Below, in pieces: positions 11,411 to 21,503 of a stretch of DNA of 55,732 bases. A program made the position numbers and the translations under genes. Location of the stretch: positions 1-55,732 of the IMG/VR virus record IMGVR_UViG_3300025769_000012, one strand, 5' to 3'. Numbering within the stretch: the first letter of the stretch is position 1; every line of letters starts with the position of its first letter. The stretch is from a virus. Lineage: Duplodnaviria; Caudoviricetes. The notes below the pieces were generated by a model. The model was not told where the DNA came from. It was given only the letters and a program-made list of their open reading frames with translations, and ran no database searches.

Positions 11411-11869
11411 TAGCACGAAATATATGCGATTTTAACCGCAAATATAAGACAGTTAAAGCCCGTTCAAAAAATCACGTAATTATTTGCGAGAAACATGGCC
11501 CTAGCCACCGTGACGTCGGCCCGGGGGCGGGGGTCGCGGCGCGGCGATTTCGGCCTTCGATCTGTGCCTTTTGACCCGATAGCTAGGGGCCCCTGCCCGT
11601 TTTTCTCGGCCTTCGGATGTCGGCCCGCGGTCCATCCGGTGCGGCGATTGCCGGTCGATCCGGTGCCCGCGATCCGGTGCCCGGTGCCCTCGGCCCTTGG
11701 CTAATTTGCACCGGCTGGGCTGCTCGATCCATGCAGCGCGGCGGGCGGATAACTGACACCGGCCAGCGATAACCGGCACCGGCTGGGGGTGCGCGGGGCG
11801 CGGCCCGTAGGTTTTGCCCTGGGGGCGCGGCCCTTGGCCCGGCTTGTTTAACTGTTAATCACCAGACAT

Positions 11870-11893
11870 AAAAAAGGCCGCCCGAAGGCGGCC
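11870..11893 (-). terminator. Intrinsic terminator (repeated family)
   Basis: GGCCGCC-TTCG-GGCGGCC-TTTTTT on the minus strand. Confidence 0.9.
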
Positions 11894-11915
11894 AGTGTTG
11901 CGCGGTGGCGGTGGT

Positions 11916-12320
11916 TTAGCTGATGTCGATATTCACGATAATATCGCCGTCGCGGATCATGTCTCGGACAGTGTCTCGGATTTCATCGTCGCCGGTATGG
12001 TCACCCTCTAACCGCTCGACGCGGTCGCGTAGGTCTTCCAGCGGGCGGCATTGCTCGACGGCATCGTCAATCATCCTTTCCAGCTCGGGCCGGATAATGG
12101 CCAGCAACGCGGCGGCGGCCTCGTCGCGCTGGGTGCGTATGCTTTGAATTTCGCCGCTCATCTGGTTAACGCTGCGCTCGATCCGCTCGGCATAGTCGCG
12201 CAGGTTTTTGAGATCATGCGCGGCTGCGTCGAGATCGTGGGCAAGGTCGGTCTGGTCAGTCAGTCGGACATTGCTTGCGATTGCGTGTAGGTGGTCGGGG
12301 TTTGTTTTTAGTTCGATCAT
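11916..12320 (-). CDS. Early hypothetical coiled-coil protein
   Basis: 134 aa with its own promoter, CTACGGAGG RBS and terminator. Confidence 0.8.
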   Translation of the reverse strand: MIELKTNPDHLHAIASNVRLTDQTDLAHDLDAAAHDLKNLRDYAERIERSVNQMSGEIQSIRTQRDEAAAALLAIIRPELERMIDDAVEQCRPLEDLRDRVERLEGDHTGDDEIRDTVRDMIRDGDIIVNIDIS

Positions 12321-12367
12321 GGCTTGCGCCCTCCGTAGGTTAAAGTTGCGACGGGTTGCCCCCCGTC

Positions 12368-12404
12368 GTCTGCGATTATATGCGATAACTTTTTAAAAAG
12401 TAAA
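12368..12404 (-). promoter_or_regulatory. Sigma70-type early promoter
   Basis: TTTACT-18 bp-TATAAT; 37 bp identical to 12932-12968. Confidence 0.8.
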
Positions 12405-12413
12405 TCCCCCAAT

Positions 12414-12436
12414 AAAAAGGCCGCCCGAAGGCGGCC
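12414..12436 (-). terminator. Intrinsic terminator (repeated family)
   Basis: Same hairpin as 11876-11893 plus T-tract. Confidence 0.9.
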
Positions 12437-12460
12437 CAGTGTCCAGCGGTTGCGCTAGGT

Positions 12461-12886
12461 TTAATCAAAGCGGGCGATTTTATAAGGCCCGTCCAAACCG
12501 ATGCGCACTGCGGTTATTCCGTAGTCATAAACAAAACAGAAAACGCGGCCTTCAAAACCAAAACGGGCCAGCGGGTGCAAGTCTGCGTCGTCTTCGTGTT
12601 CGCTGCGGTAGGTGCCCGCATGGTCCAGCGATCCGCCGAAGGGATAGCAAAAGCCGCCCATTCCGTAAACCTCGTCCATTGCCTCGCAGATACCGTCGAG
12701 CGATACGCCCAGCTCGCCGTTAGATACTGACACGCAAGCCTCGCAGAAAAAGTCGGGGATGATCCCGCAAGCCTCGACGATGTCGGCGGGGCGGGCTGCT
12801 CCGATGTTCTGATCCCGTGCGGGATTTAAAACGCGGTCGAGAATGATTTCAGACGGGCGAAAGTTTAAGTTAAATATTTGTGCCAT
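12461..12886 (-). CDS. Early hypothetical protein
   Basis: 141-aa stand-alone cassette with CTACGGAGG RBS. Confidence 0.8.
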   Translation of the reverse strand: MAQIFNLNFRPSEIILDRVLNPARDQNIGAARPADIVEACGIIPDFFCEACVSVSNGELGVSLDGICEAMDEVYGMGGFCYPFGGSLDHAGTYRSEHEDDADLHPLARFGFEGRVFCFVYDYGITAVRIGLDGPYKIARFD

Positions 12887-12931
12887 GTTGGCCTCCGTAG
12901 GTTTTAAGGTTGCCGAGGTTGCCCCCTCGGT

Positions 12932-12968
12932 GTCTGCGATTATATGCGATAACTTTTTAAAAAGTAAA
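12932..12968 (-). promoter_or_regulatory. Sigma70-type early promoter
   Basis: Identical copy of 12368-12404. Confidence 0.8.
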
Positions 12969-12975
12969 GCCCCAT

Positions 12976-13000
12976 AAAAAAGGACCGCCCGAAGGCGGCC
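12976..13000 (-). terminator. Intrinsic terminator (repeated family)
   Basis: CCGCC-TTCG-GGCGG hairpin plus T-tract. Confidence 0.85.
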
Positions 13001-13025
13001 CAGTTACTACGGCGGCGCGGTGGTT

Positions 13026-14216
13026 TTATGCTGCGACTTTGTCCAGCAATGCCCCGGCCTTGCGCTCGATCTCAATGCGGGCGTCTTGGTGGGGGATGTC
13101 GCGGGCGATTGCGGTTATCGCCTGCGCTGCATCCCAAACGGTCTCAACGGGGCGGCCCTCTTCCTCGATGTGGCGGGCTGCCGCTGCTTTGGCCATGCGT
13201 CCAGACAATCCGGCGCGCTTAGTCAAAAAGGCCAAGCGGTCGTCGTCATCGCTGGCCACCTTCGCGGCCTTCGCTGCTTGCACACCCTCGACAAACGTCG
13301 CGGTCGATCCGGTCGCAAAAGATTGCAAAGCCGGGCGGGCTTCCATTGCAAACCGATCCGGCGCGAATTTAGTGTGCCGGATTTTGATTTCGTGGAAATT
13401 CTCCACGCCCCAAAGATTGCGGTTCATGCAAACCCCGCGCAGATACATCGCCGCAATGCCTGCGGTTTTGCTGCCGGTCTCACTGTTCCAAGCGTAAAAC
13501 CCGCGGAACATCAAATCGGGCTCGCCGTTCGCAAGCTTGCCGACCTCGATGGGGTTGCGGTCGTCGACAAGGAAAACGAAAACGTCGCGGTCGGATGCGA
13601 AAAGGGTCGTCGTGTCCATGCTTACGGGGATTTCCGGATCATAAACGGCCAAACCGTTTTGGCTGCCGACCATCATGCCGGGCACCTTCCAGCGCCCGCC
13701 CGATGCGTCGACCAATTGTTTAATTGGTTCCAAGATTTCCCAGTCATAAATCCGACCATAGTCGGGGCCAGTTGCCGCCCGCAGTTCGCCGCCGTCTTGC
13801 TGGTGTCCGTAAACTTTGACCAGCTCGCGGCCTCGGTTATAGCGCAAACCCCATTGGATACAGTCCGCCGCAAGCGGGGCGGGCAGGTCTTTCAAATATC
13901 CAGACGGTGCGCCCGCCAGTTGGGCAAGCTGTCCAAAGCTCCAATTGGTGGGGGTGTTGATATGCTCGCGCCCGTTGTCGTCGTCATATTCGACAAAGAT
14001 ATTCCCCGCGCTGGGGCTGCCCTCGTCGATGTCTCCCACAATTTTCATGCGGTGCGTGTCGACGGTGCGCGACGTCATGCGCTGGGCGTCGATCTTTTTA
14101 AAGGCCAGCATATCGTCCAGCGACAAAAACTTTTGATCGTCTGGGCGGCTGAACCATTGCGAAGAAACGGCGCTGTTTCCGATACCATGGGCGAAAGCGT
14201 TAGTTGTGTAAGTCAT
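13026..14216 (-). CDS. DUF932-family protein
   Basis: 396 aa; WFSRPDD, PTNWSFGQL, YGRIYD, ASDRDVFVFL, WNSETG, VCMNRNLWG, IRH motifs. Confidence 0.75.
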   Translation of the reverse strand: MTYTTNAFAHGIGNSAVSSQWFSRPDDQKFLSLDDMLAFKKIDAQRMTSRTVDTHRMKIVGDIDEGSPSAGNIFVEYDDDNGREHINTPTNWSFGQLAQLAGAPSGYLKDLPAPLAADCIQWGLRYNRGRELVKVYGHQQDGGELRAATGPDYGRIYDWEILEPIKQLVDASGGRWKVPGMMVGSQNGLAVYDPEIPVSMDTTTLFASDRDVFVFLVDDRNPIEVGKLANGEPDLMFRGFYAWNSETGSKTAGIAAMYLRGVCMNRNLWGVENFHEIKIRHTKFAPDRFAMEARPALQSFATGSTATFVEGVQAAKAAKVASDDDDRLAFLTKRAGLSGRMAKAAAARHIEEEGRPVETVWDAAQAITAIARDIPHQDARIEIERKAGALLDKVAA

Positions 14217-14318
14217 GATTTTCTACTCCGTAAAAGTTAAAAGGGCAGACCATTGCCCGGCCTGCCCCTATAATGTCGCATAAACTTGCATACGGTGCAA
14301 GCTTAATTTTTCCAAAAG

Positions 14319-15032
14319 TTATTCCGCCCCGATGTCGCCCGCAACGTGGTGGCGGATGATCGACCGCGGCGGCAGTGATTTAGCAAAGCGCCGCACCTTT
14401 TCCGCGTCGGTCTCGTCGGGCTGGTCGCCGTTCGCAGTGTCTTCCCACCAAATACGGCAGTTGCCCGCATCGGCATAGCATCCCCCGCGGGTCGTCGGGT
14501 CGGCTGCTTTTTTCTTGCTGGGTCCATGCGCTGTAAATCCGATGATGTAATCACGATCCAGACGGGCGCAAAGCGGCACACCGTTGCCACAATCGCGGCA
14601 GGAAAACCCCTCGCGATATTCCGCCGGACACCGCACGATTTTCACACCGAAGGGGGCCGACTGCGTTTTGCTGCCCTGCCAATAGTCTTCGCGCAATACG
14701 ACGACCGACGGCACCCCGTTATAAATTGACGCGGCTGCGGCTGCCGGGCTTTCGGTCGAAAAGTTTATGACGGTCTTGCCCTCTTTCAACTTTTTGCCCC
14801 AGCCATAAACCAGCGGGTCAAAATGTGAATAGGTAAAAGACACACCTTTGCGCGGCACCGCGTCCAGCAATGCGTCCAAATATTCCGCGTCTAATTTCTG
14901 CGCACCTTTGCCGCTGCAATTCATTTTGCAATCGGCTGGGCAGGTTGCGTATTTCTCGCCGCTGCCCGCTCGATAAGTTACCGCGACGCCCTTGGTTTTG
15001 GTTGCCCGGCTCATTTCAACAGTCTTTAACAT
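14319..15032 (-). CDS. Cys-rich Gp88/DUF7227-like protein (possible Fe-S)
   Basis: TCPADCKMNC, FTYSH, INFS, CPAE..CRDC..C, GFTAHG, GCYA, RHHVAGD. Confidence 0.6.
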   Translation of the reverse strand: MLKTVEMSRATKTKGVAVTYRAGSGEKYATCPADCKMNCSGKGAQKLDAEYLDALLDAVPRKGVSFTYSHFDPLVYGWGKKLKEGKTVINFSTESPAAAAASIYNGVPSVVVLREDYWQGSKTQSAPFGVKIVRCPAEYREGFSCRDCGNGVPLCARLDRDYIIGFTAHGPSKKKAADPTTRGGCYADAGNCRIWWEDTANGDQPDETDAEKVRRFAKSLPPRSIIRHHVAGDIGAE

Positions 15033-15080
15033 GGTTTGCCCTCCGTAGTGGTATAAGACTTATCGCATATCATAAGGCAT

Positions 15081-15104
15081 AAAAAAGCCCGCAGTCAAGC
15101 GGGC
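15081..15104 (-). terminator. Intrinsic terminator overlapping the next promoter
   Basis: GCCCGC-TTGACT-GCGGGC-TTTTTT; the loop TTGACT lies 18 bp upstream of TATGAT. Confidence 0.8.
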
Positions 15105-15118
15105 AATTTTCTGGAAAG

Positions 15119-15250
15119 TTATCTTCGCCTTTTTCGGACGCGTTGCTGCGGTCGTTTCATCGGTCGCCCGCGCTTTTGTTTCTCTTCCCATTCGCGGACC
15201 TTGTCGGGGCCATGCTTCAAATATGCCCAGAGTTTTGCGAATATCATCAT
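15119..15250 (-). CDS. Small Arg-rich peptide (43 aa, not in ORF track)
   Basis: MMIFAKLWAYLKHGPDKVREWEEKQKRGRPMKRPQQRVRKRRR; ATGA coupling; ends just before a terminator. Confidence 0.65.
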   Translation of the reverse strand: MMIFAKLWAYLKHGPDKVREWEEKQKRGRPMKRPQQRVRKRRR

Positions 15251-15465
15251 GACGCATCCCCCCAGTCTTTTTGATTCCCGCGCTCTTCCGCATCACGATA
15301 TCCCGCAGAATAGGCGGTGATTTCATCGGGCGTCATATCGGCCAGCTCGACCTTATCGCTGGTGTATGTCGCGCCCACAAAATAATGCGGCTCAAACGGT
15401 CGGCCATAAAAATAGTCTGCGCCGCCTCGGTCATATGGTCCGCCGTGTCTAGTATCATAAGTCAT
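15247..15465 (-). CDS. Small hypothetical protein
   Basis: MTYDTRHGGPYDRGGADYFYGR...; GGAGG RBS upstream of the ATG at 15465. Confidence 0.75.
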   Translation of the reverse strand: MTYDTRHGGPYDRGGADYFYGRPFEPHYFVGATYTSDKVELADMTPDEITAYSAGYRDAEERGNQKDWGDAS

Positions 15466-15580
15466 TAGCTCGACCCTCCCGATCACGCACAATCCGCTCG
15501 GCCACAGCTTTAAAAGCTTCGTCCAAGATTTTTTCCAGCTCTTCGGTCGTCAAGGTTGCCCACTTGTTTACAAATTTCAT
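15455..15580 (-). CDS. Small hypothetical protein (41 aa, not in ORF track)
   Basis: MKFVNKWATLTTEELEKILDEAF...; preceded by CTACGGAGG and TTGATT-17-TAATAT. Confidence 0.65.
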   Translation of the reverse strand: MKFVNKWATLTTEELEKILDEAFKAVAERIVRDREGRANDL

Positions 15581-15623
15581 CTCATATCCTCCGTAGTTAA
15601 AGAGACTATAAGATATTATGCGA

Positions 15624-16085
15624 TTATCTGGGACTAATCAAGCCCAAAATTGTTTCCCAGTCTGGATCGCCCTCGCACTCGAACAGCGGTTCCACCGCCA
15701 TGCCCTCTAGCTTCAGGTCCATTGCGGCGCTGCCGGGGTACAAAAGCACACGCTGCGGCAGGGTCTTAGTTTTCTTTTTCAGCACCAAAACCCAGACGCT
15801 TGCATGTGCATGATTGGAAAGCCACGCGACTTGGTGGGGGCGCAGCTCGACAGCTTTTCCGCCTGTCGCCTTCAGCTCCACAAAGTGAAAGTCTCCGTCT
15901 TCATCACAAAGCAGGACGTCCGGCACACCGGGCATCGCCCACGTTTCAAGCCTCGTCGCTGTAATCTTCCGCGAACTCTTCGTCAGCGCCGTCTTCATCA
16001 TTTGCCAAAAGTCGGACTCTCGCTTTGTCGCGGTTCTGGGAATTGCTTTGTCCTTCGGGAGTAACGTCGATAGTGATCGGGGCAT
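15624..16085 (-). CDS. PD-(D/E)xK nuclease (VRR-NUC/Holliday-junction-resolvase-like)
   Basis: RLE..PGVPD...FVELK...LRPHQVAW; start uncertain because it overlaps the terS 3' end. Confidence 0.8.
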   Translation of the reverse strand: MPRSLSTLLPKDKAIPRTATKRESDFWQMMKTALTKSSRKITATRLETWAMPGVPDVLLCDEDGDFHFVELKATGGKAVELRPHQVAWLSNHAHASVWVLVLKKKTKTLPQRVLLYPGSAAMDLKLEGMAVEPLFECEGDPDWETILGLISPR

Positions 16086-16590
16086 ATTGGTTCTTTATCT
16101 CTTCTAGGGCCTTTAGCACATCGTCCTTGCTCATACTGTCGATGCTGCCGTGGCGGATTTCTGATTTGCTTACATAAATGTCGCCCTGCGCTTGCCCCCG
16201 TCGATACTCAGCTTGGACTGCTGCTGAATATGCGCCGTTCTGCAAAGCCATATCACGGATGCTTTGCAAATCTCTCAGGTGTCGTTGGTACGTCACGCCA
16301 AACTTTTCGTCCAGCTCGGCTCGATAAGCTTGGATGGCTGCAACAACATGCGGGCTTATGTGTGGATTGGTCAGCTCATATGCCCGAGTGTGGGCAGAAC
16401 TTGCAGGATAACCAGCATTGATGGCGGCTTCCCTCATTGTGATCTGGCCGTCCTTCGAGACCAGCTCTTTTACAAAAAGCTCTTGCTTGCGGGTCAAAGG
16501 CTGGGCCTTTGATGCTCGTGGCCGTCCCGGTTTTTTCTTTACCGCGACAGGCACGGATTTAGCGGTGGTCATGTCTTTTCTACGGGCCAT
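15946..16590 (-). CDS. terS: Terminase small subunit
   Basis: LTRKQELFV...AAINAGY...AYELT.P.V N-terminal HTH typical of Terminase_2. Confidence 0.8.
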   Translation of the reverse strand: MARRKDMTTAKSVPVAVKKKPGRPRASKAQPLTRKQELFVKELVSKDGQITMREAAINAGYPASSAHTRAYELTNPHISPHVVAAIQAYRAELDEKFGVTYQRHLRDLQSIRDMALQNGAYSAAVQAEYRRGQAQGDIYVSKSEIRHGSIDSMSKDDVLKALEEIKNQYAPITIDVTPEGQSNSQNRDKARVRLLANDEDGADEEFAEDYSDEA

Positions 16591-16641
16591 GGCATACTCC
16601 AGTTAATAAGCGGTAGTTTGCCACAAACTAGCCCTTTTGTT

Positions 16642-16867
16642 TATATAGAGCCAGAAAAATATTTTTTAAAAAATTTCTCCGCGACCCCCTTAACGCACTT
16701 CTGCCCCTTACTGGTTACACAAACTCTGGTTACGTTACGTTTTTGATTTCTAGTTTATGAAACTTGTAAGTCTATATAACATAAAGGCTTTTTGCCCAAA
16801 GTTACACGGTTACACCGGTTACGGCCATTTTCGCCTAAAAATATTTTTTTATTTCTGGCTCTATATA
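16642..16867. other. Candidate replication origin
   Basis: AT-rich non-coding region with a 16-bp inverted repeat (16642-16657 / 16852-16867) enclosing six GTTAC direct repeats. Confidence 0.6.
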
Positions 16868-16923
16868 TAAGGAACAGGCGTTTTCGGTGTTGCCCCGTGG
16901 GCCGCGATCCGCGATCCGTCCCC

Positions 16924-17085
16924 TTAGAAAGTCGGCTCTTGTCCTGCGTATTCGGGTTTCCACGGTGTTGGCTCGTGATCCGCGGGCTTTGAGGAGGAGA
17001 AGGGGTTCTTAGGTTTTGGCTTGCGGACCCCGAGTTGATCGAGGTCCACTTCGATCCAGAGGGGGAGATCAGTCGTCGGTGTCAT
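16924..17085 (-). CDS. Small hypothetical protein
   Basis: Last ORF of a tightly overlapping operon; start approximate. Confidence 0.5.
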   Translation of the reverse strand: MTPTTDLPLWIEVDLDQLGVRKPKPKNPFSSSKPADHEPTPWKPEYAGQEPTF

Positions 17086-17302
17086 CATCGTCGACGTCCC
17101 ATAGTTCGGCTTGTTCTGGTTCGAGTTCATCTTTCCAGACTACGCCAATGACGTATGTTGAATTGAGGCAGATGGTTGTGTCGTCATCTTCTAGGACGAC
17201 GTGGACGTATTTATCGTCCCAAGCCCATGTTTTGACGTCTCGATAGATCAGGGGTTGGGTTTGTCCTGACGCTGAGTGCATGTTTACTGTGAGTGCTTTC
17301 AT
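17069..17302 (-). CDS. Hypothetical protein
   Basis: 77 aa, GGAGG RBS, ATGA coupling. Confidence 0.7.
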   Translation of the reverse strand: MKALTVNMHSASGQTQPLIYRDVKTWAWDDKYVHVVLEDDDTTICLNSTYVIGVVWKDELEPEQAELWDVDDDDTDD

Positions 17303-17601
17303 TGTTCTTCCTCCGCGATGTACACGCGTTTCATCGGCTTCGTTCTGAAGAAGCCTTTGTACTGTGGATGTTGGTGCATGAACAAACGTGCGTAGAGCGC
17401 GATGTAGTCATTGCTGATTTTGTAGTCGTCTCCGGTGGTGACGATCATGGTCTCCCACCGGATTCGATTAACGATTAGCCAAGCGGACAAGCGAGAGTGT
17501 CCTCGCTCGATAGCTTGGAAGGTGAAGCGTTCGAAGAGTTTGTAGAACTCTGGGTTTTGTTTGTGCCACGCCCACCATTTTTCTTTGAGGTCTTCCTTCA
17601 T
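17299..17601 (-). CDS. Conserved phage hypothetical protein
   Basis: 100 aa; H..NP..Y..F, IRWE, KISND...YAR, FF motifs; ATGA coupling. Confidence 0.8.
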   Translation of the reverse strand: MKEDLKEKWWAWHKQNPEFYKLFERFTFQAIERGHSRLSAWLIVNRIRWETMIVTTGDDYKISNDYIALYARLFMHQHPQYKGFFRTKPMKRVYIAEEEQ

Positions 17602-18074
17602 GTAAACAACATGACGGCGATGCCAGCCAACAAGGCTCCTACTACGGCTTGAGCTATATAGCGTTTTGTCTTGGATGGTTCCTCAACAGGCTCGAAGTCG
17701 TATAGATCGTTCACGCCTTCGCCTAACCGGGCGGCATCATCTGGCTGCAAGGCTTCTTTACCGAACAGGGCATTGAGCCCCGGTTCGAGTTCCTTGGCCA
17801 GTTCGGCGGAGGTAATGGGCGCTTTATCTACTTTAGCGCAAGCGGCTTTAATGTCTTTGACCGGCTGTTTCATCCAGTTGGGGTCGTTGCCTTTTAGCAG
17901 CCATCCCATGACTTCGCTTCGATCCCAGCGGTTGACTTTTTTCGGCCCGCGGGCGTTGTTGCTTGCGATTTTCTTTGGTTTTGGGAACGTGCCCAGTTTG
18001 ACGCGACGATAGACAGTGGGCTTTGAGACTTTTGCCATCAAGCACACTTCGTCGATATTGATAAGGTCTTTCAT
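17598..18074 (-). CDS. AlpA/Xis-type HTH regulator with capsid-like peptide and C-terminal TM helix
   Basis: INIDEVC...VSKPTVYRRVKLGTFPKP...RW..SEV..W; internal LAKELEPGLNALFG; hydrophobic C-terminus. Confidence 0.85.
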   Translation of the reverse strand: MKDLINIDEVCLMAKVSKPTVYRRVKLGTFPKPKKIASNNARGPKKVNRWDRSEVMGWLLKGNDPNWMKQPVKDIKAACAKVDKAPITSAELAKELEPGLNALFGKEALQPDDAARLGEGVNDLYDFEPVEEPSKTKRYIAQAVVGALLAGIAVMLFT

Positions 18075-18105
18075 AGGTGCATCTCCATAGTTTTGACACT
18101 CATCG

Positions 18106-18135
18106 ATAATATGCGAAGTTATGCGATGTTGTCAA
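18106..18135 (-). promoter_or_regulatory. Sigma70-type promoter
   Basis: TTGACA-18 bp-TATTAT with two TCGCATA boxes 10 bp apart. Confidence 0.7.
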
Positions 18136-18140
18136 CAAGC

Positions 18141-18428
18141 TTAGTGGATTTCGTCGCTGGACGGATGCGTGATGATTGTTGTTTCGGTGTGGAATGCTGC
18201 GTTGGATATGCAAGACGACAGCATACCCATTGCTGTTTGGGTATCGGGTGAAACGGCGATGAGGTGTGTCAGGATTTGCGTGAGTGCCCCGCCGAGAGCT
18301 GGGCCTTTGCCCAGCCCCATGGCATCAAATTCCTCCAGCAACTCCTGCGTACAGTCTGCTGCTGTTAGAAAATCATCTTTAGCTTGTTCAGCCAGTGAGG
18401 ATGCGTTGCCATGCTTTTTCGAGTTCAT
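18141..18428 (-). CDS. Hypothetical protein
   Basis: 95-aa ORF in operon context. Confidence 0.65.
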   Translation of the reverse strand: MNSKKHGNASSLAEQAKDDFLTAADCTQELLEEFDAMGLGKGPALGGALTQILTHLIAVSPDTQTAMGMLSSCISNAAFHTETTIITHPSSDEIH

Positions 18429-18564
18429 TCACTTTTAACTTTTTAGCCTCTGGTTTCAACTTATCATCATTCTCAATTGCCGTCATTTGGTTATTGATTG
18501 CCGTGTTGACCTGCGCCACGGCCCATGACCAATCGATTTCGTTTACTCGCTTTTTGGCTTCCAT
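18388..18564 (-). CDS. Small hypothetical protein
   Basis: MEAKKRVNEIDWSWAV...; GGAGG upstream of the ATG at 18564. Confidence 0.55.
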   Translation of the reverse strand: MEAKKRVNEIDWSWAVAQVNTAINNQMTAIENDDKLKPEAKKLKVNELEKAWQRILTG

Positions 18565-18758
18565 GTATCGACCTCCGCATACCATTTGCCGTTTCGGCTT
18601 TCGCACACTTGAACGTTGATCCACTCGTCTGTCTGTCCCGTGAGCCACGCAGCGAGTTCTTCGCGTTTGATGCTGATATTACATTTGATCCAATCGGGAG
18701 CCGTGTCCCGTGGTTTTTTGGCGATGAGGCCATCGACGAATTGCTTTTGATTTTCCAT
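18543..18758 (-). CDS. Small beta-rich hypothetical protein (possible nucleic-acid-binding fold)
   Basis: MENQKQFVDGL...WIN...S..GKWYAEVDTWKP; AAGGAG RBS; downstream of the candidate RNA. Confidence 0.8.
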   Translation of the reverse strand: MENQKQFVDGLIAKKPRDTAPDWIKCNISIKREELAAWLTGQTDEWINVQVCESRNGKWYAEVDTWKPKSE

Positions 18759-18774
18759 TTTTCTCTCCTTAAAC

Positions 18775-18843
18775 GAGGTGCCCCCAGCCGGGGGCAACCG
18801 AACTGGGGGCTAGTCTCTTCTACGGAGTGCAGCCGAAGCCACG
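18775..18843 (-). ncRNA. Candidate antisense regulatory RNA (two hairpins, anti-RBS linker)
   Basis: GUGGC-UUCG-GCUGC hairpin, single-stranded ACUCCGUAG, long GC hairpin with UUGCCC loop; G-U pairs and the cUUCGg tetraloop point to the minus strand. Confidence 0.65.
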
Positions 18844-18849
18844 AAAAGA

Positions 18850-18878
18850 ACTATACTCCCAGAGTATGCGATTTGCAA
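18850..18878 (-). promoter_or_regulatory. Sigma70-type promoter for the candidate RNA/operon
   Basis: TTGCAA-17 bp-TATAGT with an ATCGCATA box in the spacer. Confidence 0.75.
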
Positions 18879-18881
18879 CAC

Positions 18882-19073
18882 TTAATCGCATAGATCACTT
18901 GGATACTCGGCGTCGGGCATTCTGTCATGTATGTCGAGTTTGCACTGCGGGCATCGACGGTGAAGCTTTTCCTCAGTTTTTTCAATAACTTGCAAAGACG
19001 TCTCGCACTTTGGGCAAAGGTTTTGGATTAAACGCTTGTGGATTTCACCCGCGGCGCTCGTCAGGTCGCTCAT
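18882..19073 (-). CDS. Zn-ribbon protein
   Basis: CPKC...CPQC; GAGG RBS. Confidence 0.7.
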   Translation of the reverse strand: MSDLTSAAGEIHKRLIQNLCPKCETSLQVIEKTEEKLHRRCPQCKLDIHDRMPDAEYPSDLCD

Positions 19074-19227
19074 CGATCACCTCAACTTCACCATGCTTTT
19101 CTTTGTACCAATCAAAAACAACGCGCAGTTGACCACCGATGGTTCGACCTTCGTGTTTCGACATTTCTTTGATTTCCTCGTAAACCTCTCGCGGCACAAG
19201 GATGCTCTTCCAGCGTGTTGTATCCAT
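19045..19227 (-). CDS. Putative ribbon-helix-helix transcription regulator
   Basis: WKSILVP beta-strand, REVYEEIKEMSKHEG helix, RTIGGQLRVVF helix. Confidence 0.7.
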   Translation of the reverse strand: MDTTRWKSILVPREVYEEIKEMSKHEGRTIGGQLRVVFDWYKEKHGEVEVIDERPDERRG

Positions 19228-19290
19228 TAAATTTCTCCAGCATACCCGGGCATGTGTAGGATATTATAGGAGATTATAAGAGAACGCAAG

Positions 19291-19312
19291 AAAAACCCCG
19301 CCGAAGCGGGGT
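19291..19312 (-). terminator. Intrinsic terminator
   Basis: ACCCCGC-TTCG-GCGGGGT-TTTT. Confidence 0.85.
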
Positions 19313-19339
19313 TAGTTAGTCGAAGCGGGGTTAGTTAGT
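19302..19339. repeat. 19-bp tandem duplication
   Basis: CGAAGCGGGGTTAGTTAGT twice (19302-19320, 19321-19339). Confidence 0.9.
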
Positions 19340-19550
19340 CGAAGTAAAAACAAAAGCTGTCGCCTTCTCCGAAGGGGTGGTGATCCACCGTTGTTGGCTG
19401 CCCGGACTTATCGTAATGGGTTTTTACGATTCGTACTTGTGAGCAGAGGTCGCCTTCAAAATCTTCAATAGTTAACTCTGATTTGAAGCGATCATTCACG
19501 TGTTTTTGCAAAGCCTCAATTAGCTCGTGGTAATAAATTTCTATTTTCAT
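19335..19550 (-). CDS. Hypothetical protein in a stand-alone cassette
   Basis: MKIEIYYHEL...; CTACGGAGG RBS; own TTGACA-17-GATAAC promoter and terminator. Confidence 0.75.
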   Translation of the reverse strand: MKIEIYYHELIEALQKHVNDRFKSELTIEDFEGDLCSQVRIVKTHYDKSGQPTTVDHHPFGEGDSFCFYFD

Positions 19551-19607
19551 GTTGCGTTCCTCCGTAGTTAGGAGGGCGTTATCGCATAACATCGCATACA
19601 TGTCAAC

Positions 19608-21503
19608 CTATTTAGCTTCGCCCCACGAAGGTCCGATTTCGACGTCGCACTTGCTTGGGACTTCCAGCGGAACAGCCTGTGTCATGATATTAGCAATCTC
19701 ATGAGCTTCTTCAACGCTTTTGACCGACATAGCGATTTCATCATGGATTTGGATCATTGGAAGACGGCCTGTCTTGTAGATGTCCACCATAGCTTTCTTT
19801 GTCATGTCCGCAGCCGATGCTTGGATCAAGCGGTTCAAAGCTTTGTAGGTGTATGCCCGCTTCAGCCTTGCGGTTGGCCCGTAGGTATCGACCGCTTCGC
19901 GATAGGGCAAGGCTTTGTTCATAGCGAACGTGTCGGGCTCCCACAAATCGAAGCGGCATTTACGGCCAAGCAACGAGCGCAGCGTACCTTTGGACGATTT
20001 CTCGTTCAGACGGTTCGTGACGCCATTCATCAGGCCCTTAACGAACGGAACGCGGTCGTGGTATTGCTTGATGATTGCTTTGGCTTCTTCCACGGTGATG
20101 TCGAGCTGTTCGGACAGTTTATTCACGCCCATGCCGTACATCATGCCGAGGTTGATGGTTTTTGCCTGCTTACGCGGGATGTTAGCCATCTCGGCCACCA
20201 TGTCGTGGAAGTCGGTCGCCGGGTTGTTGTTATATGCCTCGACGAACTCCGCAGCGCCCTCAAGGGGCAATCCTCGCGTTTTTCCATATACATGCGCATA
20301 ATGGGTCAAGATGCGTGGTTCCTGTTGCGAGAAGTCAATGGCAGCCCACTGGTCGCCTTCCTCTGGGAGGAACAGACTACGGATCATTGGACCCAGCTCG
20401 GGATCGCGGGCCGGGATTTGTTGCAGGTTGGGGTTGGACATAGAGAACCGCCCGCTGACCGTGCCCCCATCATCAGAACGGATTTGGTTGATATGAGCAT
20501 GTATTCTGCCGTCACTGTGGCAGTGTTTCATGATGGAGTTGATGAAGGTTCCGGATGTCTTGTTCAGGTTCCTTGCTTGGACGATGAGCTGCGCGAGGGG
20601 ATGTTCATGCTCTTGGAGGAACAGCTTCGTGAACGACGGTGCGCCTTTTTCGGTCTTTGGATATGCGACGCCGACTTTGTCGAACGCTTTCGAGAGCGAC
20701 TGAGCAGCCCAGATTTCGACATCGCTGCCAACGACGTGCTTGATTTGCTTCAGGACCTCCCTCTCTCGTTTGAGCAGGTTATCCCGCGTTCTCTCTACCC
20801 GGTCGGTGTCGACACGGACACCGCGCATGGTCATGTCAACGAGACATGGGAGCAGATCAAGTTCGAGGTTTGCGATAGGCCAAAGGTCTTCTTTTCCAAG
20901 CTGTACGGAGAAGTAATTCCAGAGTTCGAGGGTCAATACGGCGTCAGCTTCAGCGTAAGGTCCAACGTACATGGCTGGCATCTTCCACATTTCAGCTTTC
21001 GGGTCGATGCCGAACTCCCTTGCAGCTTCGACAAGGGCCTTCTCTGATTTGGTTTTGTTGAGGTGGTCGTAGCACAGCGCGTTTAGACTGTAGCTGAACC
21101 GGTTTTCATCCAACAGGGATGCCACCACCATAGTATCGATGATGCGGCCTTTGACCTCGAAGCCTGACGCAGTAATCCAGCCCAAGTCATACTGGGCGTT
21201 GTGCATGATTTTATCTGCGGGGCATTCGAAAACCTTTTTGAGCCACCGGTTGACGATCTTTTCGTCGAGATTGCCGCCGCCGAGGTGTTTGACTGGCAGG
21301 TAACCTGACCAGCCGTCCACCGCAACCGCGTAGCCGACAATATATCCGTCCTTGGTTGGCCAACCCGGACCATTCTGTTTTAGGTTCGAGTCTTTTGTTT
21401 CCACGTCGATTGCAATTTTCTTTGCCGACGTGATGTCTGGTAATTCGAGCGGGGGAACCCACTCACTTTTCGGTGCGAACATCGCCATTTGTAAACCCGC
21501 CAC
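19608..21503 (-). CDS. polA: DNA polymerase family A (3'-5' exonuclease + polymerase), Leu762 type
   Basis: ExoI DVET, HNAQYD, YAEAD; motif A DFSQQEPR, motif B RKQAKTINLGMMYG, motif C QIHDE; GTG start at 21503 chosen from GGAG spacing. Confidence 0.95.
   Translation of the reverse strand: MAGLQMAMFAPKSEWVPPLELPDITSAKKIAIDVETKDSNLKQNGPGWPTKDGYIVGYAVAVDGWSGYLPVKHLGGGNLDEKIVNRWLKKVFECPADKIMHNAQYDLGWITASGFEVKGRIIDTMVVASLLDENRFSYSLNALCYDHLNKTKSEKALVEAAREFGIDPKAEMWKMPAMYVGPYAEADAVLTLELWNYFSVQLGKEDLWPIANLELDLLPCLVDMTMRGVRVDTDRVERTRDNLLKREREVLKQIKHVVGSDVEIWAAQSLSKAFDKVGVAYPKTEKGAPSFTKLFLQEHEHPLAQLIVQARNLNKTSGTFINSIMKHCHSDGRIHAHINQIRSDDGGTVSGRFSMSNPNLQQIPARDPELGPMIRSLFLPEEGDQWAAIDFSQQEPRILTHYAHVYGKTRGLPLEGAAEFVEAYNNNPATDFHDMVAEMANIPRKQAKTINLGMMYGMGVNKLSEQLDITVEEAKAIIKQYHDRVPFVKGLMNGVTNRLNEKSSKGTLRSLLGRKCRFDLWEPDTFAMNKALPYREAVDTYGPTARLKRAYTYKALNRLIQASAADMTKKAMVDIYKTGRLPMIQIHDEIAMSVKSVEEAHEIANIMTQAVPLEVPSKCDVEIGPSWGEAK

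Follow-up and report, generated by a model that had tools for sequence, protein, structure and literature searches.

The virus record IMGVR_UViG_3300025769_000012 (Caudoviricetes), analyzed over its whole length of 55,732 base pairs (bp) and hereafter called the window, represents a complete virus record with terminal repeats and with all genes on the minus strand. Between the genes for a 63-residue zinc-ribbon protein (19073-18882) and for the 71-residue protein P0001 (18758-18543), both on the minus strand, lies a small RNA element which, from comparison of sequences, is probably a trans-acting, two-site antisense RNA occluding the ribosome-binding sites (RBSs) of about seven of the phage's own genes (rough probability of 0.65). 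Its anatomy and conservation, the structure of its second hairpin, the complementarity to leaders and the co-variation of RNA and leaders across phage lineages are demonstrated by computation.

RNA element and complementary leaders in the window

The element consists of the following parts.

18878-18873, minus strand: -35 hexamer TTGCAA, read from the sequence; position kept upstream of the RNA in relatives
18855-18850, minus strand: -10 hexamer TATAGT after a spacer of 17 nucleotides (nt); TATAAT in most relatives
18842-18829, minus strand: hairpin 1, GUGGC-UUCG-GCUGC, 5' stem-loop of the RNA
18828-18820, minus strand: ACUCCGUAG, first part of the single-stranded segment
18828-18811, minus strand: the whole single-stranded segment ACUCCGUAG-AAGAGACUA, 18 nt, co-varying with leaders in relatives
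18810-18780, minus strand: hairpin 2, G+C-rich and terminator-like, with a 9-bp outer stem, a 3-bp inner stem CGG/CCG and a hexaloop
18797-18792, minus strand: hexaloop UUGCCC, the complement of leader loops GGGCAA

Judging from the position of the -10 hexamer, the RNA would start at about 18843. The promoter is listed with 9 of 12 matches in a promoter scan, which in total gives 10 sites in 9 kb versus 5.8 expected and, hence, is weak evidence by itself. Within the single-stranded segment, the anti-Shine-Dalgarno core CUCCGUAG is accompanied by an extension with further complementarity to the leader at 15608-15589. Hairpin 2 is followed by ACCUCGUUU, the RBS AAGGAG (18770-18765) and then the ATG of P0001 (18758), so that upon read-through of hairpin 2 the RNA would also be the 5' leader of this gene.

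On the target side, (C/U)UA(C/U)GGAG occupies the Shine-Dalgarno position of seven leaders in the window, with all seven gene-strand sites 6-10 nt 5' of the ATG, and three of the seven additionally bear a 5' hairpin with the loop GGGCAA.

12368-12331, minus strand: target leader 1, hairpin CGACGGG-GGGCAA-CCCGUCG (loop 12361-12356), 10-nt linker and CUACGGAG (12338-12331); gene 12320-11916, minus strand, 134 residues
12930-12893, minus strand: target leader 2, hairpin CCGAGG-GGGCAA-CCUCGG (loop 12924-12919), then CUACGGAG (12900-12893); gene 12886-12461, minus strand, 141 residues
14269-14226, minus strand: target leader 3, 11-bp hairpin with loop GGGCAAU (14258-14253) and UUACGGAG (14233-14226; first pair G-U); gene 14216-13026, minus strand, DUF932, 396 residues
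15048-15041, minus strand: RBS element CUACGGAG; gene 15032-14319 (DUF7227)
15608-15589, minus strand: UAGUCUCUU-uaa-CUACGGAG (CUACGGAG at 15596-15589), the target with the longest complementarity; gene 15580-15455, 41 residues
19567-19560, minus strand: RBS element CUACGGAG; gene 19550-19335, 71 residues
18090-18083, minus strand: G-U-compatible RBS variant CUAUGGAG; gene 18074-17598 (AlpA/HTH_17-like)

In the three hairpin leaders, two exposed segments of the RNA face two target sites in antiparallel order (UUGCCC/GGGCAA and CUCCGUAG/CUACGGAG), and in the leader at 15608-15589 the RNA stretch CUCCGUAG-AAGAGACUA can form 17 bp with a 3-nt bulge. All targets belong to separate promoter-terminator units located 0.7-6.5 kb from the RNA. 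An initial annotation, made from the letters of this DNA, had described the promoter TTGCAA-17-TATAGT, hairpin 1, ACUCCGUAG and hairpin 2 with UUGCCC as well as the leader loops and RBS elements, and all of these are present at the positions given there, with seven sites before an ATG. It had also pointed to one loop being kept on three differing stems. The stems do differ (CGACGGG versus CCGAGG at 12.3 and 12.9 kb), but these two leaders are situated in near-duplicate terminator-promoter-leader cassettes and, therefore, are not independent copies.

The RBS element is clearly in excess of chance, since YTACGGAG occurs 10 times in the window versus 2.32 expected, a number reached in none of 100 shuffles. 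Six of these copies precede start codons on the gene strand and one is on the plus strand inside the RNA element, while the three plus-strand copies inside genes (24317, 35708 and 48225) are probably fortuitous. By itself, GGGCAA shows no enrichment (50 versus 38 expected, with 2 of 100 shuffles reaching 50). The composite GGGCAA-N15-30-YTACGGAG, on the other hand, has three gene-strand copies and a single one on the opposite strand (18792-18827), and the pattern read backward does not occur. Allowing for at most one mismatch from CUACGGAG, seven sense sites and one antisense site precede a start codon in the window. Moreover, when the whole genome was scanned for duplex formation with the 21-nt single-stranded stretch as query, the best four of 5570 sense-strand windows were all leaders, headed by 15622-15587 at -24.9 kcal/mol.

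Conservation and structure in related phages

From 147 relatives of P0001 found in viral contigs, the best 80 were kept, and in 72 of these the same architecture is present directly 5' of the P0001 homologue (35 distinct sequence variants); of the other eight, seven are preceded by another gene and one is truncated. A search starting from a 71%-identical homologue gave 32 further, more distant loci, with the RNA present in eight (L179, L180, L186, L187, L189, L191, L200, and L196) and none detected in 24. The element is kept in lineages with an identity of only about 60-70% between the P0001 proteins, where the intergenic sequence around it has diverged. When folded singly, 33 of 33 variants form the terminator-like hairpin 2 and nearly all of them a 5' hairpin with differing stem sequence. 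In most relatives, a clear U-run follows hairpin 2, on the minus strand only, and UGCC of the hexaloop is invariant across 31 aligned variants.

Base pairing was counted for hairpin 2 only, using a hand-written structure, as the raw MAFFT alignment misplaces hairpin 1 and the clade with a longer hairpin 2; RNAalifold on this raw alignment of 31 variants gave only a 5-bp helix between a C-run and a G-run, with no co-variation. With the hand-written structure, 89.2% of the cells are paired, compared to 81.6% in shuffles and 35-55% with the 3' partners slid, and five of 12 pairs are changed on both sides, resulting in a covariation score not reached by any of 500 shuffles. One of the pairs is C-G in 12, U-A in 10 and G-C in seven sequences, and the inner stem CGG/CCG is replaced by UCGA/UCGA with the loop retained. 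The 27 G-U cells of hairpin 2 would be A-C mismatches if read on the other strand, which fixes the RNA strand as minus, and both the promoter upstream and the U-run downstream exist only in this orientation. The minus-strand assignment of the initial annotation is thereby borne out, as is its remark that the plus-strand reading is not followed by an open reading frame (ORF), since none with a usable start was found there. A covariance model built on the single-stranded segment and hairpin 2 identifies one strong copy per complete genome. It additionally gives a weak plus-strand match at 12329-12381, over the 12.3-kb target leader, as complementarity predicts. Further weak matches in L187, L189, L200, L172, and L196 turned out to be ordinary terminators and were discarded, with the exception of L196:8682-8739, which is the RNA copy of L196.

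Co-variation of the RNA with the leaders of its own genome

Among the relatives, the RNA falls into four sequence classes, each matched by changes in the leaders of its own genome.

Class A (window and most relatives): RNA CUCCGUAG with loop UUGCCC; leaders CUACGGAG with loops GGGCAA(A) on many different stems
Class B (L125, G004): RNA CCUUUAGUUGGUUAGUGAGU (core CCUUUAGUUGGUUAG) with loop UUGCCU; hairpin leader with loop AGGCAA, then CUAACUAACUAAAAGG (one G-U, one bulge)
Class C (L147): RNA UUCCUCGUUGUGUAAGAC (core UUCCUCGUUGUGU) with loop UUGCCC; leaders ACACAACGAGGAA (13 nt, perfect), CUUACACAACG and CUUACgCAAuGAGG
Class E (L187, L189): RNA CUCCGUGU; leaders ACACGGAG or AUACGGAG

Three more class B leaders, ACUCACUAACgAAAGG, CUCACUAACaaAAAGG and AACUAAAAAGGUAAAGG, carry ACUCACUAAC or AACUAAA...GG. 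All three class C leaders lie behind hairpins, with the loops GGGCAA, GGGCAAA and GGGCGAA, and both mismatches of the third leader are G-U compatible. In class E, the RNA loop is UGUUUCCCCCG in L187 and AUCCCC in L189, and in the former UUUCCCC is opposite a leader hairpin loop containing GGGGAAA. Likewise, the change to UUGCCU is compensated by AGGCAA. Even the extension follows one orthologous leader, with AAGAGAC/GUCUCUU in the window and UUAAGAC/GUCUUAA in L166. Hence, the claim of one structured minus-strand RNA with two segments pairing with the leader loop and the RBS of dispersed transcription units gains from conservation, from compensatory stem changes and from the four matched classes, the latter being the co-variation in relatives that the initial annotation had proposed to look for.

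For an all-against-all comparison, every ATG window was searched with a Watson-Crick run of 8 nt as threshold. In class A genomes, class A RNAs match 3-6 windows. The RNAs of L125, L147, and L187 match three, two, and four windows, respectively, of the genomes they come from, with mirror controls at 0-3. Across classes, class A RNAs of the window type find 0-1 windows in L125, L147, L187, and L189, and class B, C, and E RNAs find none in the window's genome. This stricter count was used in place of an 8-mer count over a 40-nt stretch, which had a background of 3-6 matches per strand; a first RNAduplex cross-matrix at -11 kcal/mol had not discriminated between the classes at all. In loci bearing the RNA, the complementary extended Shine-Dalgarno sequence is the commonest 8-mer (five copies in the window and three in L187), while in 11 loci without detected RNA, the contigs being partial, no such 8-mer exceeds two copies. 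Among the sites before start codons, 19 are perfect and the 20 single mismatches comprise 15 G-U compatible ones, one broken transition and four transversions, a bias that loses weight because the sites are partly orthologous across related genomes, the 15-to-1 wobble count corresponding to about 6-8 independent events.

Several other observations weigh against a trans-acting RNA of this kind. The core duplex is short, with 8 bp plus a 6-bp loop contact. In metagenome contigs, the RNA loop variant AUGCCC (L224, L229) is opposite GGGCAAA(A) and uncompensated, with 5 bp left. Accordingly, the loop-loop kissing put forward in the initial annotation is supported by complementary loops and by the compensated UUGCCU/AGGCAA, but a strictly conserved six-base contact is not. 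In some leaders of the L172/L224 clade, pairing is limited to blocks of 5 and 4 bp with an internal loop between them. The site is not retained in all orthologous leaders, as the DUF7227 leader is devoid of it in L131, L159, L174, and L147; the orthologue-based comparison covered few class B and C leaders and zero clade E leaders, its small reach being due to the turnover of gene content in the region. The all-against-all count also gave matches between classes, namely six of the L159 RNA in L187, four of the L174 RNA in L125, three of the L147 RNA in L125 and four each of the L187 and L189 RNAs in L159. These are found where RNAs share part of the segment, so that by this count the classes are not fully orthogonal. 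The energy matrix of RNAs versus leaders is biased toward its diagonal, since the leaders were picked for complementarity. A concerted change of all motif copies, including the inverted one, is also expected from a co-evolving DNA- or RNA-binding protein. In the window itself, the U-tract after hairpin 2 is poor (ACCUCGUUUAAGG), and the element may exist mainly as 5' untranslated region (UTR) of the mRNA for the 71-residue protein. Single-sequence folding of the window RNA is no better than that of shuffles (z = -1.55). In its minimum-energy fold, an alternative 5' fold competes with hairpin 1.

On the same side stand metatranscriptome contigs from three studies (18756-18920, 18809-19075, and 18859-19093), which have a low depth of 2-5x and carry information on neither strand nor ends; one contig spans the RNA promoter, and the contigs could be DNA carry-over. 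Contigs of the runs X1-X3 fall within 18756-19238, over the RNA and the zinc-ribbon gene, and a contig of run X4 (18522-18685) is inside P0001. RNA libraries from estuary and marine samples thus contained the phage or a close relative, and the contigs neither support nor refute an RNA transcript.

Alternative explanations

The gene directly 3' of the RNA, P0001, has no match to a Pfam or PHROG family and none in cultured phages by tblastn. For its AlphaFold2 model (predicted local distance difference test score, pLDDT, of 85), a Foldseek search against PDB gave nothing at E ≤ 0.001, the best row being the Escherichia coli single-stranded-DNA-binding protein (SSB) with E = 1.4. Five homologues (P0025, P0034, P0075, P0079, and P0080) have a C-terminal extension ending in DD[ILV]PF, which is missing in the window copy and which, we presume, resembles the C-terminal tip of bacterial SSBs. 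Proteins of the SSB class can autoregulate on their own mRNA. In two relatives (L019 at about 380-470, L026/L027), UUCGUUUCAGGAGAAACAAAUGGG, comprising RBS and start, is tandemly repeated two to three times between the RNA and the P0001 homologue.

An unlikely alternative is a cis-acting 5' leader or attenuator of the operon of the 71-residue protein. In that case, hairpin 2 would be a regulated terminator and the exposed bases would be read by a protein, perhaps the P0001 product, and likeness to other leaders would reflect a shared protein-binding or RBS context and not RNA-RNA pairing. This would fit with the location of the element directly 5' of the RBS of the P0001 homologue wherever it is present, except for L196, with hairpin 2 and a U-run in most relatives and with the DD[ILV]PF ends of some homologues. 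However, a protein reading UUGCCC and CUCCGUAG would not read their complements, yet the complements shift in step in four classes, and the mismatches are biased to G-U compatible ones (15 versus one broken transition). In addition, another gene separates the RNA from the P0001 homologue in L196, and P0001 itself shows no family or significant structural match.

Also improbable is that the RNA does pair with the leaders but with another outcome, i.e., activation or processing by opening a sequestered Shine-Dalgarno sequence or by creating an RNase III site, or that the leaders titrate the RNA for controlling read-through into the gene of the 71-residue protein. In line with such an outcome, the leaders of genes 19550 and 15580 (19530-19582 and 15560-15612, minus strand) are predicted to sequester their Shine-Dalgarno sequence by pairing their own GGAGG with an upstream CCUCC or UCUCU, and in the 15.6-kb leader the RNA extension pairs with this upstream arm. 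For these two leaders, activation or processing is therefore possible. Against it as a general outcome, the RNA covers GGAG itself in every target, and the RBSs of the three hairpin leaders are predicted to be open in the absence of the RNA, which makes occlusion, and thus repression, the simplest outcome.

Still less probable is that the motifs are orientation-independent sites in double-stranded DNA, forming a bipartite operator of a phage protein whose copies drift together with the specificity of that protein. A concerted change of all copies within a genome would be equally expected then, and with ATCGCATA another DNA motif is indeed present at the promoters of the cluster (12 copies versus 1.3 expected). 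However, the loop motif always lies between inverted repeats of freely varying sequence, which is sensible only for a single strand. All seven gene-strand copies take the place of the Shine-Dalgarno sequence, with 6-10 nt between them and a start codon, and each genome has exactly one inverted copy, with its own promoter and terminator. Furthermore, the mismatch spectrum is asymmetric, as G-U pairing predicts, and the spacing is 22 nt in the inverted copy versus 17-19 nt in the sense copies. Leader hairpins of the boxB type, in which a phage protein recognizes a loop that is kept although the stem varies, are conceivable and fit the anatomy of the leaders, but the complementary RNA loop and its co-variation would be left unexplained. 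Finally, the duplicated cassettes (12.3 and 12.9 kb) and the lack of a plus-strand ORF with a usable start after the copy might suggest the inverted, decayed and now functionless remains of a cassette whose leader formerly served a plus-strand gene, but this is hardly credible given an element conserved at about 60-70% P0001 identity in diverging flanking sequence, compensatory stem changes on the minus strand and exposed bases following the leaders of their own genome.

Relation to known regulatory RNAs

The initial annotation had likened the RNA to C4 and CI. Searching the whole window with Rfam cmscan at gathering thresholds gave no match, also not to the C4 antisense RNA family, which we take to be RF01695, and at E values up to 10 only a chance match to snoU54 on the other strand was obtained for 18650-18950. 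As judged by these models, the RNA does not belong to the C4 family. Nor is kinship to either C4 or CI supported, as the RNA has its own promoter and its targets are outside its own operon. The c4 RNA of P1/P7 (immI) is described as a short structured RNA with complementary segments likely in loops, which binds phage mRNA around the RBS and blocks translation (PMC12197685). Its sequence specificity separates related phages, as in P1/P7 heteroimmunity (PMC12197685). The window RNA shares with it short exposed segments, one of them directed to the RBS, and lineage-specific pairing, a resemblance in working and not in kinship. The transcript from which c4 is excised is that of the operon containing its target, and its control extends to a single operon (icd-ant) of a temperate phage. 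In contrast, the window RNA has its own promoter directly upstream, which is conserved in relatives, and about seven targets in other transcription units 0.7-6.5 kb off. Moreover, the phage is apparently lytic. No integrase, repressor or other lysogeny genes turned up among 29 ORFs scanned, and its nearest cultured relatives by polymerase are pelagiphage-like, which lends no support to the immunity switch considered in the initial annotation.

The CI RNA of the satellite phage P4 is likewise small, pairs with two short sites in the leader transcript, sets immunity specificity and causes premature transcription termination within its own operon. The window RNA is similar in being a small phage RNA with two short leader sites, but its main site is the RBS of separate mRNAs, and it matches no Rfam sequence or structure. 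With respect to pairing, the likeness is rather to OxyS-fhlA, CopA/CopT and RNA I/RNA II, in which complementary hairpin loops plus a second contact covering the RBS allow fast two-step pairing. Correspondingly, complementary bases are found here in hairpin loops of both the RNA, on a co-varying inner stem, and the leaders, on stems of free sequence. These plasmid antisense RNAs are cis-encoded and fully complementary, OxyS-fhlA is a single target pair and all are bacterial or plasmid-borne, whereas in the window one phage RNA faces a family of leaders sharing a loop and an extended Shine-Dalgarno sequence. The staphylococcal RsaE and RNAIII have their own promoter, a terminator hairpin with U-run and a short C-rich seed against GGAG-containing RBSs of several mRNAs. 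With these, the window RNA has in common an anti-Shine-Dalgarno seed matching several mRNAs and co-varying across relatives, but its targets are the phage's own genes, which seem to have acquired during evolution a shared extended Shine-Dalgarno sequence as well as a 5' hairpin loop dedicated to the RNA. To our knowledge, phage RNAs regulating genes of their own phage in trans are known only from a handful of temperate model phages (c4, CI, sar). A literature search revealed no description of this RNA, with the supplements of a catalogue of structured virus RNAs (PMC10690425) lying outside its scope.

Genomic context

Among the proteins encoded by the genome are a family A DNA polymerase, a UvrD-like helicase, an AEP primase, terminase, capsid and SU10-type adaptor proteins. 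Those cultured phages that are nearest by polymerase are DSL-LC04 (58%), 023Pt_psg01 (54%) and the Pelagibacter phages HTVC023P (51%) and HTVC027P (48%). The group is one of widespread uncultured aquatic phages and, judged by this protein, is distantly related to HTVC023P-type pelagiphages. A blastn search of 17500-20000 against cultured phages gave zero matches.

The RNA and its targets belong to a cluster at 19.6-11.4 kb with its own sigma-70-like promoters, terminators and the shared motif ATCGCATA. Of this 8-mer (ATCGCATA/TATGCGAT), 12 copies are present in 11423-19598 versus 1.3 expected, 10 of them in or beside promoters of the cluster (e.g., 12379-12386, 12943-12950, 15617-15624, 18120-18127, 18865-18872, 18885-18892, and 19581-19598), and the motif probably is an operator for a phage transcription factor, which suggests a second, transcriptional control layer. 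One pair flanks the RNA promoter.

18865..18892: inverted pair ATCGCATA/TATGCGAT flanking the -35 hexamer, conserved in relatives; candidate operator

Three near-identical intrinsic terminators (GGGCCGCCUUCGGGCGGCC plus U-run) are found on the minus strand at 11876-11893, 12418-12437, and 12982-13001. Two of them are followed by near-identical promoters TTTACT-18-TATAAT (12404-12375 and 12968-12939), forming the repeated terminator-promoter-leader cassette. A non-coding stretch at about 16600-16800 (minus strand) with repeated GUAAC words (…guaacguaaccagaguuuguguaacc…aagugcguuaaggggguc…) is conserved in the window as well as in G002 and G004, precedes a terminase small-subunit-like gene (16590-15946) and may be a packaging or regulatory site. 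Another G+C-rich non-coding stretch at about 11780-11870 (minus strand; aacaagccgggcc…gggccgcgcc…), situated after the terminator at 11893-11876 and before the large-terminase region, also recurs in G002 and G004.

Proposed mechanism and implications

Production of the RNA, its pairing in the cell, repression as the outcome and the time of action are what we infer from the patterns described. A minus-strand RNA of about 65-70 nt would be produced under the control of its own sigma-70-type promoter, with part of transcription probably reading through as 5' leader of the gene for the 71-residue protein. It would be composed of a protective 5' hairpin, the 18-nt single strand and a terminator-like hairpin displaying UUGCCC, the two hairpins being typical stabilizing ends. 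As a presumably fast first contact, this loop would touch the GGGCAA loop of the 5'-terminal hairpin on three leaders. Then, CUCCGUAG, plus the extension for some targets, would pair with (C/U)UA(C/U)GGAG containing the Shine-Dalgarno sequence of about seven genes. Consequently, the ribosome would be kept off, and destabilization of the mRNA is possible. Silencing as the direction of control is read here from the RBS overlap only. As the same sequence is the 5' UTR of the P0001 mRNA upon read-through, pairing could also occur from mRNA to mRNA.

Rather speculative is the further idea that the RNA-leader pairs are discrete, largely non-cross-reacting classes A, B, C, and E that, in an abundant group of marine lytic phages, serve as a code made of RNA alone for competition or exclusion between co-infecting relatives. 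Each class would then have arisen when the RNA and as many as seven leaders switched in concert. By its RNA, a resident phage would shut down the genes of a superinfecting relative of the same class, and escape from this would drive class switching. If true, this would be the counterpart of P1/P7 heteroimmunity in lytic phages and a natural set of orthogonal riboregulators.

In the trans-acting antisense reading, one small RNA appears to be matched to an entire group of leaders of the same phage with a dedicated loop and an extended Shine-Dalgarno sequence, and the co-variation in four classes is unusually direct computational evidence for RNA-RNA pairing. The idea is testable without phage culture by combining cognate and non-cognate RNAs and leaders in reporters. 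Should it hold, gene timing in marine phages would have an additional, post-transcriptional layer, and naturally orthogonal pairs of regulator and target would become available.

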